Positions 1 through 63,171 of a stretch of DNA of 64,000 nucleotides are shown piece after piece. The notes below the pieces were generated by a model that saw nothing but the letters and a program-made list of their open reading frames with translations, was not told the origin of the DNA and did no database searches. Made by a program: the position numbers and the translations under genes. This stretch comes from an uncultured delta proteobacterium (GTDB taxonomy: Bacteria > Desulfobacterota > RBG-13-43-22): NCBI GenBank assembly GCA_963743305.1, contig CAVUPH010000037.1, positions 1 through 64,000 on the forward strand, given 5' to 3'. Positions within the stretch are counted from its first letter, which is position 1. Every line of letters starts with the position of its first letter.

Positions 1-1080
1 GTGCAGGGCGGCCGGTACGCCCCAGGAATCAGCCACCAGGCCCAGGAGCGTAACCCCCAGACCGCCGGTTCCGATGGCAAATCCCACCATCAGGCCGGAG
101 GCCATCCCTAACCGGCCCGGCAGGAGGTCCTGGGCCATGACCACGGTGACCGAAAAACTGGAAACCAGCACAAATCCCGCCAAACCCAGTACCAGAAAAG
201 TCCCCCAACCTTGCACCTGGAAAAACAAGACCATCAATGGGATCATGACCACCCAGGTGGCCGTTAAGAACCGCTGGTGCCCCCAGCGGTCCGCCAGGGG
301 GGCTCCCAGCAGGGTCCCCAGGGTCCCGGAAATCAGGAAGGTGGTCACCATCTTGCCGGCCAGCAGCGGGTCGCCTTTCAGATAGTTGATGTAATAAAAG
401 GGGATGTAACTGACCAGGCCCATCTGGATCCAGGATCGCATGGTGACCACCAGGATAAGGAGAGTCAGTATCCCGTAGGAAGAACCGCCGTTTCGGGCAG
501 ACGGTTTGGCCCGGCTTTTCTCGTGGGGTTCGGTATATCGGAAAGTGGAAAGAAAAAAAATCGTGGCGGCCACCATGAGTAGTCCGGGAAGAAGGTAAAA
601 CAAGGTCCCTTTCAGGGAAAAATGGGTAACCAGGAAGAGCAGCGTAAAGGGGCCCAGGGCGAAACCGAGGTTTCCCCCCACGGCAAAGAGGGACATGCCC
701 GTGGCCTTTTTGGTCCCGATAAAAAAATGCGCGGTTTTGAACCCTTCCGGATGAAAGGCCGCCACGCCCAGCCCGCAGAAAACCACCAGCGCCAGGAGCG
801 TGAGATAATTGGGGGATAGGCCGGAAAGGCTGATCCCCACGGCGGCCATCAGGATTCCCAAAGGGATGAGGAGCGGCTTGGGCCGGCGGTCGGAAACCAG
901 GCCGAAAAGAGGCTGAATAATCGATGAAGTCAGGTTGGAAACCAAAAGGACGAGGCCGGCGGCGGTGTAGGAGAGGCCCAGGGACTCCTTGAGAAAGGGG
1001 AGCAAGGCCGGCAGAGCCCCTTGGCTGATATCGGTGACCAGATGACCTAAACTCAATAAAATCAGTATCTTGAAGTTCAA
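1..1080 (-). CDS. MFS transporter, Fsr (fosmidomycin-resistance) family; 3' end runs off the window
   Basis: Manual translation from TTG at 1080: MNFKILILLSLGHLVTDISQGALPALLPFLKESLGLSYTAAGLV...SSIIQPLFGLVSDR; absent from the ORF track because it is open at the window edge. Confidence 0.85.
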   Translation of the reverse strand, partial: MNFKILILLSLGHLVTDISQGALPALLPFLKESLGLSYTAAGLVLLVSNLTSSIIQPLFGLVSDRRPKPLLIPLGILMAAVGISLSGLSPNYLTLLALVVFCGLGVAAFHPEGFKTAHFFIGTKKATGMSLFAVGGNLGFALGPFTLLFLVTHFSLKGTLFYLLPGLLMVAATIFFLSTFRYTEPHEKSRAKPSARNGGSSYGILTLLILVVTMRSWIQMGLVSYIPFYYINYLKGDPLLAGKMVTTFLISGTLGTLLGAPLADRWGHQRFLTATWVVMIPLMVLFFQVQGWGTFLVLGLAGFVLVSSFSVTVVMAQDLLPGRLGMASGLMVGFAIGTGGLGVTLLGLVADSWGVPAALH

Positions 1081-55891: not shown

Positions 55892-56932
55892 TTACCAAGG
55901 AAACTTAAAAAGCCAATTTTTCACCCGGAACCAATGACCGACAACGATAGCCGCCGTTTGACTCAAAATAATAAAAGCGAAAACCAGGTTAAGGATCAGC
56001 CTTTCCTTAACAAACCATTTGCCGCCCGGTAGTATTGAGCGATCGAGTACCGGGCAGAGGACTAAGAACAGGCCGATAAATAAAGGCACCACAATGCCGC
56101 CGACCAAGGCCGAATGACTTACCATTTCCTGGATACCCACCAGATACCAGGGTGCTTTGGCCGGGTTGGGCGGATGCAGAGGATCGGCCCTTCCCGACAG
56201 CGGAGCTTCGATGAAAAGCGCTAGGACGAGCAGAAGGGAAAGGGTCAGGAGGCCGACAGCCAATTCCGCTTTAAAGAGTATCGGCGAAGAGGCAATTTTC
56301 TCAGAATCCGGACCCTCGAAGGTAGCCAGCCCCCCGGCTTTCCGGATACGCCAAAGATGCAGCGCAACCAGGAACACCCACAGGGAGGGCAGGAAGGCCA
56401 CGTGCAGAGCAAAGGACCGGATTAGGGTATCGGGGCCTATTTCCTGACCACCCAGGAGAAACCTGCGGATGGAGGGGCCGGCGAAAGGGAAGTACGAGGC
56501 CAGATTAGAACCTACTTTGATTGCCCAAAAAGACGTCTGGTCCCAAGGAAGGAGGTACCCCGTATAATTGCTCGCCAAAGTCAGTGTCAAGAGGCCCAGC
56601 CCGTAGACCCAATTCAGATAACGCCCCTGATAGCTTCCGGTGAAATAAACCCTGGTCAGGTGCAGGAAACCCGCGATCAACAGAACATTGGCAGCCAAGT
56701 AATGGAGGTTTCGCACCAACCCGCCATATCGCAGTGTAGTCATGATATGAATTATCCGGTCATAAGCCACCTCCTCGTAAGGAACGTAATAGAGCAGGAG
56801 TGTCACCCCGGTCAAAACAAGTAAAATAAGACAGGATAGGCAGATGACGCCCAGACCGAGGGTTGTGAGTGGTTGCAGGGTCTTCACCTGGATTAGCGGT
56901 GGATGGAGGTGTTTCAGAAAATTTATTTTCAT
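55892..56932 (-). CDS. Cytochrome b/b6 (fused subunit IV-like part)
   Basis: LTGVTL..YYVP, RNLHY, HLTRV, TGYLLPWDQ, ALHV..LH, PNPAKAPWY. Confidence 0.88.
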   Translation of the reverse strand: MKINFLKHLHPPLIQVKTLQPLTTLGLGVICLSCLILLVLTGVTLLLYYVPYEEVAYDRIIHIMTTLRYGGLVRNLHYLAANVLLIAGFLHLTRVYFTGSYQGRYLNWVYGLGLLTLTLASNYTGYLLPWDQTSFWAIKVGSNLASYFPFAGPSIRRFLLGGQEIGPDTLIRSFALHVAFLPSLWVFLVALHLWRIRKAGGLATFEGPDSEKIASSPILFKAELAVGLLTLSLLLVLALFIEAPLSGRADPLHPPNPAKAPWYLVGIQEMVSHSALVGGIVVPLFIGLFLVLCPVLDRSILPGGKWFVKERLILNLVFAFIILSQTAAIVVGHWFRVKNWLFKFPW

Positions 56933-56947
56933 GCTTTACTTCAGGTC

Positions 56948-57428
56948 CTATCCCTTACGATCAGGGACTGGTTCTCTTAGCGCCAACCAGCTCGGCTTCG
57001 TCAATTTTTCTCCGATATGCACCCATAGTCTGCCACCTCGCTCCATTACTTCGTGCCAAGGAAGCGGATCAGTGGCCGGACCTGAATAGACTTGGCCCAG
57101 CGGGACCGAATTCGCTGCCATGGCAGGGACAAAAAAAACCCTGGTCGACCACATTGAGAAGACAGCCCAAATGGGTGCATTCCAAGCTGATGGCCCCGAT
57201 CCTCCGGGAAGACCGGATGACGACTATCTTGTGCTCGGGGAAAGGGGTCAGTGTACCGGGTGCAAACCGGTCCAGGGAAGAAATTTGGACCCAACTACCG
57301 GAAGAAAACCGGGAGGCTGCCGTCCAGACGTTGCCGAAGATCCAGGCAAAGGCCGTTCCTACAGCCCCCAAGCCGCCAATCACCAGCCATCTGAATAGAA
57401 ATTCCCGCCGGCTAACGCGTTTCGTCAT
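56948..57428 (-). CDS. Rieske 2Fe-2S protein (+1 frameshift near 57102)
   Basis: Tat motif SRREFL, CTHLGC, CPCHGS; shifted frame continues GQVYSGPA..PLP. Confidence 0.88.
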
Positions 57429-59073
57429 CGGCTCCTCGCTCTCCGGAAAATTTTCGGACCAGACCAACCAGGCCCCAGATTGATTCCGGTCGGAGATTGT
57501 CGGCAAAGGGCCGCATGGCGGTCCCTGGAATCCCGTAAGTTATGGCGGTTGCAATTCGTTCATCGGGGAAAGACCTGAAGTAGGGAACATTGGTGAGGTC
57601 TCTCGGTCTGGGCAGATATTTCAGGTAGGCGGGTCCCTTTCCCTTCCCTTGATAACCGTGGCAGAGGGAGCATTTTTTCCTAAAGGTGGAGAGGGTCTCT
57701 TCAGAAGACGGTAAGGTCCTAGGTCTGGGCGGAGGAGTATTCATCATCTTAACCGTCCTTTCTGTTTTGATGAATACCTGAAAGAGAAGGTCTACCAGGG
57801 AATTGATGGTTTCTTGCCCCAACAACTCCCCATAGGGCGGCATCGAGGTGCCTGGAATCCCCTTGGTTAGGCTTCCCGTGATTCTTGAATCGGGGATAGC
57901 CTTGAAAAACAACGCGTTGTGACGGAAGGCCCGGGGAAAGGTCGCCACGTTCGGCTCGATGATCCCAAACCCATCGCCCTGGGCGGCGTGGCACCGTTGG
58001 CAGAGCATCATGTACGCATTTCTGGGAGTCCCCTGGTGAAAGTGGGCCCTTTGCTTCTGTTGAAGGAGGGAAAGAAGTCCGTCTTCTTCTCCCGTGCCCA
58101 TGGGGATTCTCGGCATAATGGCGCCAGGGATTTCGATTCCCGGCCGATGCAGGAAATTCCTGATATAATCCCTTGGCCTCATAAAGGCCATATAAGAAAG
58201 GTCCGGTCCAATCTGGCCGTCGGATTCCCCGAACTTGTGGCAGGCCAGACATTTCTTTTCCTTGAGCAGCTCCATTCCCATTGGGACCCGTTGGGTGAGC
58301 CCTATTCTCTCCAGCCGTTCCTGCTCCCGTTCCCTTGATAGGCGGATCATCGGCGTTTCATAGTACGGCTCTTTCACCCGACTCTTCAGAAAATAGGAGA
58401 GGGCGTTCACTTCTTCAGGAGAAAGTCCGAATTTCGGCATGATCGAGTTCTCAAGGATTGTCCTGGGATTCCCGATAGCCATTTTAATTTGTTTCAACCC
58501 CAGGTACGAGCCGACCTCGCTTAGATCCGGGCCATAGCTGGAACCTTTCTCCCCGCTTCTCGTGTGGCAGGTATCACAGGCGGTTTCGGAAAACAACCGG
58601 CTCCCTTGCCAGGCTTTTTCCGCTCCCCGGAGTGGTTTCAATTCATGGCATTGGTAACAACTGGCCTGCAGGTCTTCCCCGGCCAGGACCTTTCGCGCTT
58701 CATTCCCTGTTCGGCCATGGGATATCTTGAGATCGGCAGCCATTCCTTCACCTAAATGGCAGGCCGTGCATCCCAGGTCAGACATGGAATGGGGAGCGAT
58801 GTTCGGATGGTCGCGCCCGGGCAGAGAATGATCGATCCGCACGGCGGCCCTCCCCTCGGGGTGACACGTCCGGCAGTGTTCTTGTTTCGGTGTTCCGCCA
58901 AGGTTGACGGTTATGTTGGCGATGTGGTGGGAGCCAGTCCTTCCATAGCGATAGTAACGACCCGACTGCTCTTCCCACCCCTGATAGCTCCAAAAAACGA
59001 GCAGACCCAGGGTTAGAACCAAGGCGGTCAGGAGAAAGACATCGATCAACAACGCTACACGTCTCTTTGGCAT
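57412..59073 (-). CDS. Membrane-anchored multiheme cytochrome c (7 CxxCH)
   Basis: CRTCH, CTACH, CYQCH, CDTCH, CLACH, CQRCH, CSLCH; GPDL and MP motifs. Confidence 0.9.
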   Translation of the reverse strand: MPKRRVALLIDVFLLTALVLTLGLLVFWSYQGWEEQSGRYYRYGRTGSHHIANITVNLGGTPKQEHCRTCHPEGRAAVRIDHSLPGRDHPNIAPHSMSDLGCTACHLGEGMAADLKISHGRTGNEARKVLAGEDLQASCYQCHELKPLRGAEKAWQGSRLFSETACDTCHTRSGEKGSSYGPDLSEVGSYLGLKQIKMAIGNPRTILENSIMPKFGLSPEEVNALSYFLKSRVKEPYYETPMIRLSREREQERLERIGLTQRVPMGMELLKEKKCLACHKFGESDGQIGPDLSYMAFMRPRDYIRNFLHRPGIEIPGAIMPRIPMGTGEEDGLLSLLQQKQRAHFHQGTPRNAYMMLCQRCHAAQGDGFGIIEPNVATFPRAFRHNALFFKAIPDSRITGSLTKGIPGTSMPPYGELLGQETINSLVDLLFQVFIKTERTVKMMNTPPPRPRTLPSSEETLSTFRKKCSLCHGYQGKGKGPAYLKYLPRPRDLTNVPYFRSFPDERIATAITYGIPGTAMRPFADNLRPESIWGLVGLVRKFSGERGADDETR

Positions 59074-59137: not shown

Positions 59138-59542
59138 CTATTTCCGCTCGGTCGGATAGTTTGCCTGATCCCACTCATTCCACCCGCCTTTGAGGACGGA
59201 TACCTTCTTAAATCCCCGCTTGATAAGTTCCTGTGCCACCCGGGCACTGGTCGCCTCATCTTGTCAGGCTCAGTAAAGGACAATGGTTTTTGCCTTGGAA
59301 TACTTTTTGGCCCAGGATTTCACAGCGCCAGGATCTTCCCGAACCGCCCCTTTGATTTGCTTCAAACTCATTTTCCGGTCCCATAAAGTCCGGACATCAA
59401 TAACCACCACCTCCGGTTTCCCCAGCATGGCTTTGAGTTCCTCTTTGCTGATTCGGGGAATCTCCGAGGAAATGGCCGTAAATACCCAGATCCCCAAGAG
59501 TATAAAGACCATTGCCATACCGGCTATTGCTTTCCTTACCAT
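59138..59542 (-). CDS. Exported rhodanese-domain selenoprotein with two in-frame UGA codons (Y-U-A-U)
   Basis: Frame continues past TGA 59270-72 and TGA 59264-66: IDVR...KTIVLY-U-A-U-QDEATSARVAQELIKRGFKKVSVLKGGWNEWDQANYPTERK*(TAG 59138). This completes the rhodanese fold. Alternative start GTG 59551. Confidence 0.85.
59222..59260 (-). promoter_or_regulatory. Putative bacterial SECIS hairpin
   Basis: GAUGAG-gcga-CC-a-GUGCC-cgggu-GGCAC-a-GG-aa-CUUAUC; G-rich apical loop starts 21 and 27 nt after the two UGAs. Confidence 0.7.
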
Positions 59543-59648
59543 TTTTTCCACACTCCTTTCTTGATCGCATAGGGACCCTCCGGCAACTTGAGCATTAAGT
59601 GCCTGGGTTCCTTCTAATAATATTGCTTCCTTGATCCCTTCCTTATAT

Positions 59649-59748: not shown

Positions 59749-60276
59749 TTAGCGTACGGGCCCAACCTTTGTTGGCTTGGCTCTTTTTTTCCGCTTGGGA
59801 GGGAGGCTCACTTCCTGCGATAAAATAAGACGCGGGAGAGTTCCATCGACGCCCAGAATCGAAACCAAACGTTTGAGTCCTCTATTAATTTCTTTCAGGC
59901 CGCTTAGCGGTGTTTTCTCCAACCCAACTACCAGTAAGCCTTGGGCCACTTCCGGAGCGGCTGCGACCAGATCTTTTCCTTTGGGGGTCAATTCTACCCA
60001 GACAATTCGGCGGTCTTCCTTGGACCGGGTCTTTTCTATCAGACCATGAGACTCGAGCCGGGTGAGGATTCCGACTACGGTTGCCGGGTGAAGGTACATC
60101 CGGCGGGCTAATTCGGAAACCATCACCGGAGCGGCTTCGGCCAGGACCTTAATGGCCCAGAGCTGGGGACTGGTAAGACCGGTAGTATGCTCGACCTTTT
60201 TGGAATATTCATGAATGACCTGAAAGACTCTTCTTAAATTATCAATGGTATCAGCTATTAATTTTGATTGGTCCAT
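59749..60276 (-). CDS. MarR family transcriptional regulator
   Basis: GLTSPQLWAI, SELARRMYLHPATVVGIL.RLE..GLI, DRRIV.V.LT.KG. Confidence 0.9.
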   Translation of the reverse strand: MDQSKLIADTIDNLRRVFQVIHEYSKKVEHTTGLTSPQLWAIKVLAEAAPVMVSELARRMYLHPATVVGILTRLESHGLIEKTRSKEDRRIVWVELTPKGKDLVAAAPEVAQGLLVVGLEKTPLSGLKEINRGLKRLVSILGVDGTLPRLILSQEVSLPPKRKKRAKPTKVGPVR

Positions 60277-60492: not shown

Positions 60493-61884
60493 ATGACATT
60501 AGATATTAAAAGAAATCACGACCGGATTAAGATAAAAATAACCGAAGAATCGGTTATTTTTATCAGTATATTGAAATGGTTTATCCTGTCCACGGCCATC
60601 GGGGCGATCGTTGGTCTTGCCACCGCCTTCTTTTTAAAGGTCTTGGAATGGACAACCATTTGGACCCATACCTTGCCTTATTATTTTCTTTTCCTGCCGA
60701 TCGCCTTTTTTTTAAGTGCCTTAATGATTAAATATCTGGCTCCGGGGGCCGAGGGGCACGGGACCGAAAAGGTTATCGAAGCCGTTCATAAACAATCCGG
60801 AAGAATTAAACCGATGGTCGTTCCCATAAAACTGTTGGCCACGGTCATCACCATAGCCTTCGGGGGATCGGCTGGAAAAGAAGGCCCTTGTGCGCAGATA
60901 GGCGCGGGCCTGGCCTCTATCTTTGCCTCTCTGTTTCGTTTTGATGATTTTGACCGGAAAAAGCTGGTCATCTGCGGGATCAGCGCCGGTTTCGCCAGTG
61001 TCTTCGGGACCCCTATAGCTGGGGCCATTTTCGGGGTTGAGGTACTTATGGTAGGTAGTGTCCTTTATGAAGTTCTCTTCCCTTGTTTTATAGCCGGCGT
61101 CACCTCATATCAGGTTTCATCGGCCATCGGGATTACCTACTATTATCATCCCATGCATTTGATCTCGGTTTTTAAGGAATTATTTTTCATCAAGGTTGCC
61201 TTGGCCGGTATTTTTTTCGGGATCGTTTCCTTTCTTTTAGTTGAATTACTGAAGTTGGGTAAAAAAATGGCGGATCGCCTGCCGATCTGGCCTCCTCTTA
61301 AGGGGATAATTGGGGGTCTTCTTTTGGTCGGTCTGACCTTGGCAATTTCAGACCACTATTTGGGGCTGGGATTGTCCACCATTGAGGCCTCCCTTCAAGG
61401 CCTCAAGATGGTCTGGTCTGCCTTCCTCTTGAAAATTATTTTTACCAGTTTAACCCTTAATTTTGGAGGTAGCGGAGGAATCGTTACTCCCATCTTTTTC
61501 ATTGGGGTGACCTCCGGAAGTTTTTTTGCCCAAATCTGGGGCTTGGATATAGCCACTTTTTCAGCCATCGGGATGGTGGCTCTGTTAGCCGGGGCGGCCA
61601 ATACACCTATCGCCGCCAGCATCATGGCCGTGGAACTTTTTGGTCCCCAAATCGCCCCCTATGCGTCCGTGGCCTGCGTCATCAGCTACCTGATGACCGG
61701 ACACCGCAGCGTTTATCCCTCTCAAATTTTGTCGGTTACCAAATCACCTTCTTTTGAGTTAGAGATCGGCGACGATATAGATAGCACCCATGTCCACTAT
61801 AAACCAAGAAAGAAAAGCCTGATCGGGGCTTGTCTGCTGGTCTTTGAATCCCTAAAAAGCGGCATAAAGCGGAAAAAGCGATAG
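60493..61884 (+). CDS. ClC-family chloride channel/antiporter
   Basis: GHGTEKVI, GGSAGKEGP, FGTPIAGAIF, GGIVTP, ANTPIA. Confidence 0.88.
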   Translation: MTLDIKRNHDRIKIKITEESVIFISILKWFILSTAIGAIVGLATAFFLKVLEWTTIWTHTLPYYFLFLPIAFFLSALMIKYLAPGAEGHGTEKVIEAVHKQSGRIKPMVVPIKLLATVITIAFGGSAGKEGPCAQIGAGLASIFASLFRFDDFDRKKLVICGISAGFASVFGTPIAGAIFGVEVLMVGSVLYEVLFPCFIAGVTSYQVSSAIGITYYYHPMHLISVFKELFFIKVALAGIFFGIVSFLLVELLKLGKKMADRLPIWPPLKGIIGGLLLVGLTLAISDHYLGLGLSTIEASLQGLKMVWSAFLLKIIFTSLTLNFGGSGGIVTPIFFIGVTSGSFFAQIWGLDIATFSAIGMVALLAGAANTPIAASIMAVELFGPQIAPYASVACVISYLMTGHRSVYPSQILSVTKSPSFELEIGDDIDSTHVHYKPRKKSLIGACLLVFESLKSGIKRKKR

Positions 61885-62157: not shown

Positions 62158-63171
62158 GTGGGAAGAAAAGGGAAAACCTTTAAGATAAGCCTGGTGCTTG
62201 GGGTGATCCTTATCATCAGTCTGCTCCATTACCTAACTCAACGACAGGAAAGATATTATCATCTCTTTTATCGAGAACTCTATTTCCTTCCCGTGATCCT
62301 GGCCGGAATTTGGTTCGGTCTGCGAGGTTCAGTCCTTACTTCGTTGTGCATAACTGCATTATATCTCCCGGTAGTATTCAATGAATGGCAGGGGTTTTCA
62401 GTAAACGATTTCAGTCGAATATTGGAAATTCTTCTTTTAAATATTATTTCCATTATTTTAGGATTTCTTTCGGACAGGGAGAAGACAGTTCTGAAAACCT
62501 TGCAGGAGGCTGAAACTCTGGCGGCCCTGGGAGGCGCCATTTCCAGTATCGTCCATGACATGAAAATACCGCTGGTAGCCATCGGGGGCTATGCCCGATC
62601 CATGAAGCGGAAACTTAAGGAAGAGGACCCCAATCATGAAAAATTGGATACCATTGTCAAGGAGACCCACAGGCTGGAAGAGTTGACCCAAGACATATTG
62701 GCTTATGCCCGGCCGATTCCTTCGAATCAAGGTCCCGGTGATTTAAATAAAATGGTCATAGAATGTTGCCGGATCGCCAATGAAATGGCCGAACAAAGAG
62801 GGGTGAACATAGAAATTCATCCGTCTCCATCGCTTCCAACCATAAATTTTGACCCGGCAGCCATGGAAAGGGCTTTCTTAAACCTGATTAGTAATGCCGT
62901 CCAAGCCTCTCCCGAAGGGGGGGTGGTGATGGTCGGGACTATTATGGAAGGGAGAGAGGCAGTCATCACCATAGCCGATGACGGTCCGGGAATCCCTCTT
63001 GAGATCAGGGAAGAAATATTTTCTCCTTTCTTTACCACTAAAAAGGAGGGAACGGGCCTGGGCCTACCCATTGTTTTGAAGATCGTCAAAGCCCACAGTG
63101 GAAGAATTACGTTAACTGGCAACGGTGAAAAAGGGATGGTATTTAAGGTTTCCTTACCTGCGGGGAAATAA
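62158..63171 (+). CDS. Membrane sensor histidine kinase
   Basis: N-terminal TM domain, HDMKIPL H-box, NLISNA, DDGPG, FFTTK..GTGLGL. Confidence 0.9.
   Translation: MGRKGKTFKISLVLGVILIISLLHYLTQRQERYYHLFYRELYFLPVILAGIWFGLRGSVLTSLCITALYLPVVFNEWQGFSVNDFSRILEILLLNIISIILGFLSDREKTVLKTLQEAETLAALGGAISSIVHDMKIPLVAIGGYARSMKRKLKEEDPNHEKLDTIVKETHRLEELTQDILAYARPIPSNQGPGDLNKMVIECCRIANEMAEQRGVNIEIHPSPSLPTINFDPAAMERAFLNLISNAVQASPEGGVVMVGTIMEGREAVITIADDGPGIPLEIREEIFSPFFTTKKEGTGLGLPIVLKIVKAHSGRITLTGNGEKGMVFKVSLPAGK

Follow-up and report, generated by a model that had tools for sequence, protein, structure and literature searches.

The window analysed here, a stretch of 64,000 nucleotides (nt) spanning positions 1 to 64,000 of the forward strand of contig CAVUPH010000037.1 (assembly GCA_963743305.1) from an uncultured deltaproteobacterium of the Desulfobacterota lineage RBG-13-43-22, carries on its minus strand, at 59138..59542, a rhodanese gene whose active-site loop contains two UGA codons separated by a single Ala codon. 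We consider it probable that the product is an exported periplasmic rhodanese of the rarer U-x-U form, where U denotes selenocysteine (Sec), and that both UGAs are decoded, most likely both as Sec, by way of one hairpin of the selenocysteine insertion sequence (SECIS) type. The double-UGA gene is a genuine member of a curated selenoprotein family whose usual motif is L-Y-C-A-U, and with its U-x-U motif the window's gene adds one more case to a variant already known in that family. Current knowledge is not overturned, since both the motif and the idea of a single SECIS have already been published; what is added here is the frequency of the UxU form, its repeated switching, the fixed 21/27-nt geometry of the hairpin together with its covariation, the lack of a UxC form, the lack of association with the Sec-like tRNAs known as tRNA-ReC, and a link to cytochromes.

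Read in frame, the minus strand gives AAA ACC ATT GTC CTT TAC TGA GCC TGA CAA GAT GAG GCG ACC AGT GCC CGG GTG GCA CAG. The open reading frame (ORF) delimited with genetic code table 11 closes at ...KTIVLY (59270..59551). When TGA is read through, the frame continues for 41 codons past the second TGA and then ends at a TAG (59140-59138), as an earlier note on this DNA, made from the letters alone, had claimed, and the product has 134 residues: QDEATSARVAQELIKRGFKKVSVLKGGWNEWDQANYPTERK. Translation probably begins with the ATG at 59542; an AGGAG lies 10 nt upstream of it, and the position agrees with the end of the gene in the earlier note. The read-through protein matches the Pfam Rhodanese domain PF00581 across both TGAs (E 2.8e-15, residues 36-129) and the NCBIfam model NF041203, "rhodanese_LYCAU, rhodanese-related (seleno)protein", with 168.6 bits, where 115 are required; this match covers profile positions 4-126 of 126 and again spans both UGAs. 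In a genome-wide scan with NF041203 the same gene scored 154.5 bits. Because the two matches span both TGAs, the read-through frame is not due to chance, and the assignment of the gene to the CxU-type rhodanese selenoproteins as a U-A-U variant is borne out by the score and the in-frame second UGA.

The two codons differ in their standing within the family. TGA2 (codon 93, 59264..59266) is the regular Sec codon and provides the Sec expected at the last position of L-Y-C-A-U, while TGA1 (codon 91, 59270..59272) falls in the invariant Cys column, so that the Cys expected at the third position is absent; in the closest orthologues this codon is TGC or TGT. A TGA in place of the Cys codon reads as a Cys/Sec exchange inside NF041203 and as no departure from the family. 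The N-terminus (59465..59542), which consists of MVRK, a hydrophobic run and TAISS, looks like a Sec-pathway signal peptide with a putative cleavage site, in agreement with the signal or transmembrane segment reported earlier, and would direct the protein to the periplasm. Nearly all homologues share this basic-hydrophobic-AxA pattern, followed by a conserved (D/E)(I/V)PR(I/M).

To place the double UGA within its family, 401 genomes of the same phylum were scanned with NF041203 (E <= 1e-25), and all matches were fetched and translated, which yielded 117 genes in 88 genomes. The usual C-x-U form accounts for 93 of these genes; 16 have U-x-U in the same two columns, with A, S, T or D as the residue in between, seven are devoid of Sec (3 CxC, 2 CxS and 2 CxA), and one is atypical, with a single U in a loop shorter by two residues. 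The motif's last position is TGA in 109/117 genes, and none of the 117 genes from the 401 genomes has the form U-x-C. The 16 UxU genes come from 16 genomes belonging to 10 family-level groups, and in 7 of these genomes there is no other copy of the family. Standard gene callers stop at residue 90 of the window's protein, so that annotation lacks the enzyme together with its active site, and the same holds for the 16 UxU genes among the 117.

A maximum-likelihood tree was built from 110 of the 117 genes, excluding seven rows that failed the motif filter and masking both motif columns. On this tree the UxU label needs 13 changes, and the branches with a Shimodaira-Hasegawa-like approximate likelihood ratio (SH-aLRT) support >= 95 alone force at least 5. 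The window's gene clusters with CxU orthologues from its own family, whose first codon is TGC or TGT, and with one U-S-U gene; on account of this grouping its TGA1 is a recent substitution of one base, of a kind that has occurred repeatedly in the family.

Evidence that both UGAs can be passed comes from relatives in which the UxU rhodanese is the N-terminal domain of an octahaem c-type cytochrome fusion, as seen in the four genomes of one family group and in another lineage. In the group of four, the fused UxU genes continue for 441-442 codons past UGA2, with 8 CxxCH motifs each, and their pairwise ratio of nonsynonymous to synonymous substitution rates (dN/dS) is 0.10-0.22 at a dS of 0.68-1.08. 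Since the large cytochrome domain downstream is under purifying selection, the ribosomes of these relatives must pass both UGAs. The 41 codons past the UGAs in the window's gene have a dN/dS of 0.12-0.20 in comparison with six orthologues.

Downstream of the two codons a two-tier hairpin is present, as the earlier note had proposed (59222..59260, minus strand; -14.2 kcal/mol). Its lower stem, GAUGAG/CUUAUC, pairs 59260-59255 with 59227-59222, and is followed by a CC/GG step (59250-59249/59231-59230) and by a core hairpin (59233..59247), delimited by comparison with relatives and by published criteria, in which the 5-bp stem GUGCC/GGCAC (59247-59243/59237-59233) carries the loop CGGGU (59242-59238), of 5 nt and with a G at position 2. 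The loop starts 21 nt past UGA2 and 27 nt past UGA1, and its place is the same in CxU and UxU forms. The bacterial SECIS consensus of the Zhang and Gladyshev model (PMC13188914, in excerpt) comprises an upper stem of 4-16 bp, a UGA-loop spacing of 16-37 nt, an apical loop of 3-9 nt with a G at its position 1 or 2, and an MFE (minimum free energy) of -7.5 kcal/mol or lower. The window's element agrees with this consensus for both codons in loop, stem, spacing and MFE, its upper part (the 5-bp stem with 2 further bp beyond a 1x1 mismatch) having -8.5 kcal/mol and the bare 5-bp stem -6.1. As 21 and 27 nt both lie within the published range, the earlier statement that such an arrangement is unusual for position-dependent decoding is not supported.

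Support for the hairpin was taken from comparison with relatives, because folding alone is not significant. Of 46 Sec-form rows, 43 have all five pairs of the stem at +17..21/+27..31 after UGA2, the 15/15 UxU rows among them; the three exceptions are one row with a one-codon length change and two with 4/5 pairs. Among further CxU rows, 57/65 are fully paired, four have 4/5 pairs, and a length change occurs in three of the remaining four. With L051, the row with the one-codon length change, set aside, 45 Sec forms keep 4/5 or all of the stem pairs at the fixed register, and the loops listed for them all have a G at position 1 or 2. In the ungapped alignment of 45 Sec forms (15 UxU, 30 CxU), U-A (34) or C-G (11) stands at pair 30:42, C-G (41) or U-A (4) at pair 33:39, and G-C (44) or U-G (1) at pair 31:41, and these three pairs are never broken; overall, 4 pairs are without any break and two-sided, compensatory changes occur at 3/5 stem pairs. 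The covariation score of 0.196 was reached by 0/500 shuffles, and slid partners are 29-40% paired versus 75.9% for the true structure. Furthermore, the changes in the hairpin fall on synonymous sites of the conserved S-A-R-V-A-Q peptide, and the stem is lost in 4/5 Sec-less homologues examined (1-3 of 5 pairs), the fifth, a CDC form, keeping it. RNAalifold retained only the 5-bp core, whose conservation throughout the family answers the earlier call to look for a conserved downstream hairpin. Altogether, a single conserved SECIS-type hairpin is supported, with no room for a second one. The claim that one SECIS serves two UGAs is supported as far as the presence of a single hairpin goes; double Sec is less firm, as this genome also has a Sec-like tRNA-Cys.

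The same genome contains at least five further rhodanese-domain genes with an in-frame TGA, each with a hairpin loop that begins ~20-21 nt past the last TGA (C14:444968-445327, C16:98031-98342, C7:112269-112535, C15:7744-8061 and C6:223730-224092). Their motifs are Y-U-AGLT-U (TsoB-like), CQGST-U, Y-U-AVGGRS, CS-U in a gene fused to a membrane-protein part, and CA-U in a canonical paralogue. The TsoB-like gene has one hairpin, with its loop 21 nt past the second UGA and 36 nt past the first, and one hairpin behind two close UGAs is a recurring arrangement in this genome, not one peculiar to the window's gene.

We propose that the canonical SelB/tRNA-Sec pathway reads both UGAs, guided by one fixed hairpin. 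The hairpin would already have been serving UGA2 when the neighbouring Cys codon, TGC or TGT, became TGA, so that the new codon fell within the working range and was read instead of terminating translation; the repeated switching would be explained by each new TGA falling within reach of the existing hairpin. The two residues, spaced two apart in a six-residue active-site loop, probably form a redox or chalcogen-transfer pair, which could adopt a selenylsulfide in CxU and a diselenide in UxU, and which may act on a periplasmic sulfur or selenium compound while exchanging electrons with a module of multihaem cytochrome c, Rieske protein and cytochrome b. The more far-reaching form of this proposal is that one fixed SECIS programmes two Sec residues two codons apart, that the U-x-U diselenide centre is wired or fused to periplasmic multihaem cytochromes, and that the reach of the hairpin makes the neighbouring Cys codon a freely reversible Cys/Sec switch that has flipped at least 5 times; taken as a whole, we lean only slightly towards it. 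If true, SelB would deliver a second Sec-tRNA within two translocation steps, with the ribosome already nearing the hairpin. Since one base is all that separates CxU from UxU orthologues, which share an identical hairpin, the family is well suited as a small natural system for studying how a position-dependent bacterial SECIS and SelB handle two UGAs 6 nt apart. The Cys/Sec switching, the lack of UxC and the link with multihaem cytochromes, which are neighbours here and fusion partners elsewhere, point to an uncharacterised periplasmic redox activity on sulfur or selenium in syntrophic and sulfate-reducing deltaproteobacteria.

Most of the Sec machinery that the earlier note had wished to see confirmed is present in the genome, namely a tRNA-Sec with anticodon UCA (75.1 bits), selB (363.5 bits) and selD, the last with an in-frame TGA of its own, which makes SelD a selenoprotein too. 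Several points nevertheless weigh against the decoding of both UGAs as Sec. With two models, selA was not found in this assembly of 43 contigs, which is rated 90% complete and 5.7% contaminated; it is present in 12/12 same-family relatives, including 3/3 of the same genus, and its absence is likely an assembly gap. The backing for TGA1 consists of the assembly and of one public 174-nt contig (run X2), identical over 59196-59369 with both TGAs included, which may share the window's source sample and is perhaps not independent, and TGA1 itself is a lineage-specific single-base change. Three other public runs (X1, X3 and X5) contain contigs of relatives, and no RNA run was listed for this stretch. 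The base quality of the assembly is imperfect, as indicated by the homopolymer indel errors in selD and in a SelB paralogue, although the context of the UGAs is without homopolymer. The closest orthologues of the operon are found in another genus of the family and not in the three genomes of the same genus, and the contig might stem from another organism than the machinery genes through contamination or mis-binning; all relatives at the family level also have Sec machinery. As for the hairpin, the proposed check by folding gave a mixed answer: the hairpin forms, and the 86-nt region around it folds no better than shuffles (-24.6 kcal/mol, z = -1.37, 20/200 shuffles as good). Of the two tiers, the lower one is lineage-specific, with 63% pairing family-wide, and only the 5-bp core, with its covariation, is common to the family. 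The purifying selection seen downstream of the window's UGAs mostly dates from before the change from C to U and constitutes weaker evidence. For every family member, Sec at either codon is deduced from sequence. Finally, a Sec-like tRNA-Cys lies beside the SelB paralogue, so that one UGA, or each of the two, may be read as Cys in this genome.

This last point leads to the foremost alternative, in which UGA1, or either UGA, would be read as Cys by the Sec-like tRNA-Cys and the SelB paralogue through the same hairpin, giving a C-x-U product or a mixture of C and U. The tRNA (G000 C14:100710-100799) is 92 nt long and has the anticodon GCA, U73, an acceptor stem of 8 bp and a long extra arm; the tRNA-Sec model gives it 50.8 bits, and it lies directly upstream of the gene for the SelB paralogue (locus G000 C14:98749-100820). 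Together they look like a tRNA-ReC type system for SECIS-dependent Cys insertion, both elements of which, a Sec-like tRNA with Cys identity and a dedicated SelB-type factor, are found in the genome. According to PMC13582414 (in excerpt), tRNAs of this kind, whose anticodon is UCA or GCA, bring about the SECIS-dependent recoding of UGA as Cys, and the same source reports their enrichment in genomes with UXXU hydrogenases, about 56% versus 2.3%. The SelB paralogue, full-length, is split by a frameshift, which speaks against this alternative, though this is probably an assembly error at a run of G: selD (C26:75850-76774) and the SelB paralogue (C14:99414-99597) both shift frame at six- to seven-G runs, and these shifts are probably homopolymer indel errors of the assembly, not real.

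The distribution of such tRNAs also tells against a Cys reading. The search with the tRNA-Sec model covered 80 of the 88 genomes, that is 16 UxU and 64 of the 72 others (8 non-UxU genomes less than 90% complete were excluded), and 40 secondary matches were classified with ARAGORN, one of them (G176) being unclassifiable; with the stricter filters applied, weak tRNAs have possibly been missed. Of the UxU genomes 3/16, and of the others 10/64, have a Sec-like tRNA-Cys or else a second Sec-like tRNA with a UCA anticodon, which is no enrichment, so that tRNA-ReC was rejected as the general reason for UxU, and 13 UxU genomes must read both codons without such a tRNA, unless it was missed. Decoding of UGA as Cys in this gene is, in our view, unlikely. 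Pairs of a similar tRNA and a SelB paralogue were also observed in G013, G108, G193, G222 and G399, the tRNA of G399 having a UCA anticodon. Another genome, G017, which has a U-S-U rhodanese (L092), carries two tRNA-Sec genes (78.5 and 74.3 bits; C31:24494-24584) and may combine two organisms in one bin, its rated contamination being 8%.

Far less probable still is that TGA1 is a recent nonsense mutation that leaves the gene dead or truncated at residue 90. The codon is indeed a single base away from the TGC/TGT of the nearest orthologues, a canonical CxU paralogue is also encoded in the genome (C6:223730-224092), and the copy with an in-frame TAA in G222, detailed below, indicates that decay does occur in the family. 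On the other hand, the same change is kept in 15 other genomes, including genes with a selected 440-codon cytochrome domain downstream, and the window's gene has no frameshift or other stop, with its hairpin and operon intact. The least credible alternative, a sequencing or assembly error for TGC/TGT, could appeal to the G-homopolymer indels in selD and the SelB paralogue, which suggest error-prone long reads, and runs up against the public 174-nt contig, identical at both codons, against the nature of the errors seen, which are homopolymer indels and not substitutions, against a codon context free of homopolymer, and against the commonness of UxU in the family (16/117 genes).

An AlphaFold2 model computed with 51 family sequences (mean pLDDT, the predicted local distance difference test, 86.1), which starts with a low-confidence helix at 4-15, places a strand at 86-90, a loop at 91-96 that contains both UGA residues, and a helix at 97-108, and Foldseek matched it to solved rhodaneses with probability 1.00 and a template modelling (TM) score of 0.65-0.70. 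Alignment column 91 is C or U in 51/51 homologues, which bears out what the earlier note had expected of this column; column 93 is mostly U, with C, S or A in the Sec-less forms. The first column is favoured as the nucleophile because of its invariance, its place directly after the central strand and the alignment to 6kvy, and the position of UGA1 is probably the canonical catalytic Cys position, as had been claimed. That claim is weakened in one respect, since the profile alignment to 6mxv, contrary to that with 6kvy, sets the catalytic Cys opposite UGA2.

Several known systems resemble the window's gene in part. PMC13188914 and PMC9312934 (both in excerpt) list the rhodanese_LYCAU family as a CxU type that has a single Sec. 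NF041203 members are like the window's gene in length, in the signal-peptide-like N-terminus, in the Sec at the second motif position and in a hairpin at the same distance; they differ in that the Cys two residues before the Sec is UGA-encoded here, where the catalogue lists one Sec. The UxU form as such is not new, contrary to the earlier suggestion: Zhang and Gladyshev described it in 2007 for a rhodanese-related sulfurtransferase of deltaproteobacterial symbionts of Olavius algarvensis (PMC1976440). The text of that paper gives UxU without distribution, SECIS geometry or gene context, and its form, likened to the window's gene by its description there, may be of the same family and columns. 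Other bacterial families with two close Sec residues have likewise been catalogued, namely the Prx-like UxxU proteins and TsoB, UxxxxU, listed with 2 Sec (excerpts of PMC13188914 and PMC9312934). TsoB (NF045694, rhodanese/DsbD fusion-like) likewise has a rhodanese active-site loop with two UGAs; it differs in that the window's protein scores 28.7 bits on its model against a cut-off of 805, in the distance between its UGAs, 15 nt versus 6, and in its fusion to a membrane domain.

A parallel in decoding is offered by the UXXU Group 4 [NiFeSe] hydrogenases, for which, in 2026, one SECIS was proposed for both UGAs and the switch was ascribed to a UGC/U-to-UGA change only (PMC13582414, in part). 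These enzymes have two close UGAs as here, with a core SECIS unchanged between CXXU and UXXU; they differ in being an unrelated metal-binding protein, in their 9-nt spacing and in the enrichment of tRNA-ReC. GlpE (1gmx) and the Francisella rhodanese-like protein 6mxv have the same fold and carry a nucleophile in the loop that joins the central strand to the helix after it. They possess one Cys and perform cytoplasmic sulfur transfer, whereas the window's protein would be exported and cytochrome-linked, with two chalcogen residues spaced by one. Our search of the literature, supplements aside, turned up neither an experiment that tests two close bacterial UGAs served by one SECIS nor a survey of the UxU rhodanese form, of which those supplements may list members or SECIS predictions.

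The gene lies on the minus strand within a set of redox genes whose order is kept in genomes of the same family, CxU or UxU alike. Upstream is a MarR-family regulator (59749..60276), also found upstream of orthologues, and beyond it are a CLC-type chloride channel gene (60493-61884) and a histidine kinase gene (62158-63171), both on the plus strand, with no link seen. Downstream follow, on the minus strand, a membrane-anchored c-type cytochrome of 553 residues with 7 CxxCH motifs and a SoxX-like domain (57412..59073; TIGR04485, 71.1 bits, cut-off 61), the ORF of a Rieske-like [2Fe-2S] protein (57069..57506; PF00355, E 1.2e-7) and a cytochrome b/b6-type membrane subunit (55892..56932; PF00033, E 1.6e-37), which is located downstream in relatives too. 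This succession of cytochrome c, Rieske protein and cytochrome b after the rhodanese resembles a module of bc type in which the multihaem c subunit is unusual.

A LYCAU-type rhodanese joined to an octahaem cytochrome of ~400 residues was observed in six genes, L076, L077, L078 and L049 (G166, G308, G101 and G064), L088 (G134) and L082 (G272), five of them UxU and that of G134 CxU. The fused cytochrome matches Pfam Multi-haem_cyto and, distantly, hydrazine dehydrogenase and other proteins like hydroxylamine oxidoreductase (HAO). No homology between it and the window's cytochrome was detected by tblastn at E 1e-5, and one conserved cytochrome partner was ruled out given the differing cytochrome types, the link being to some multihaem cytochrome c. 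The neighbours and the octahaem fusions point to a role in periplasmic redox chemistry of a sulfur or selenium compound.

Two single genes of the family deserve mention. One CxU gene (L140, G222:C38:92503-92871) has an in-frame TAA in its conserved C-terminal part (…GMGF*KVYALKGGW…) and is either a decaying copy or the product of an assembly error. The atypical gene of the survey (L187, G257:C12:29241-29576) has its lone UGA right after the strand tyrosine (…KIVIY-U-QKEGT…), a form unique among the 117 genes.

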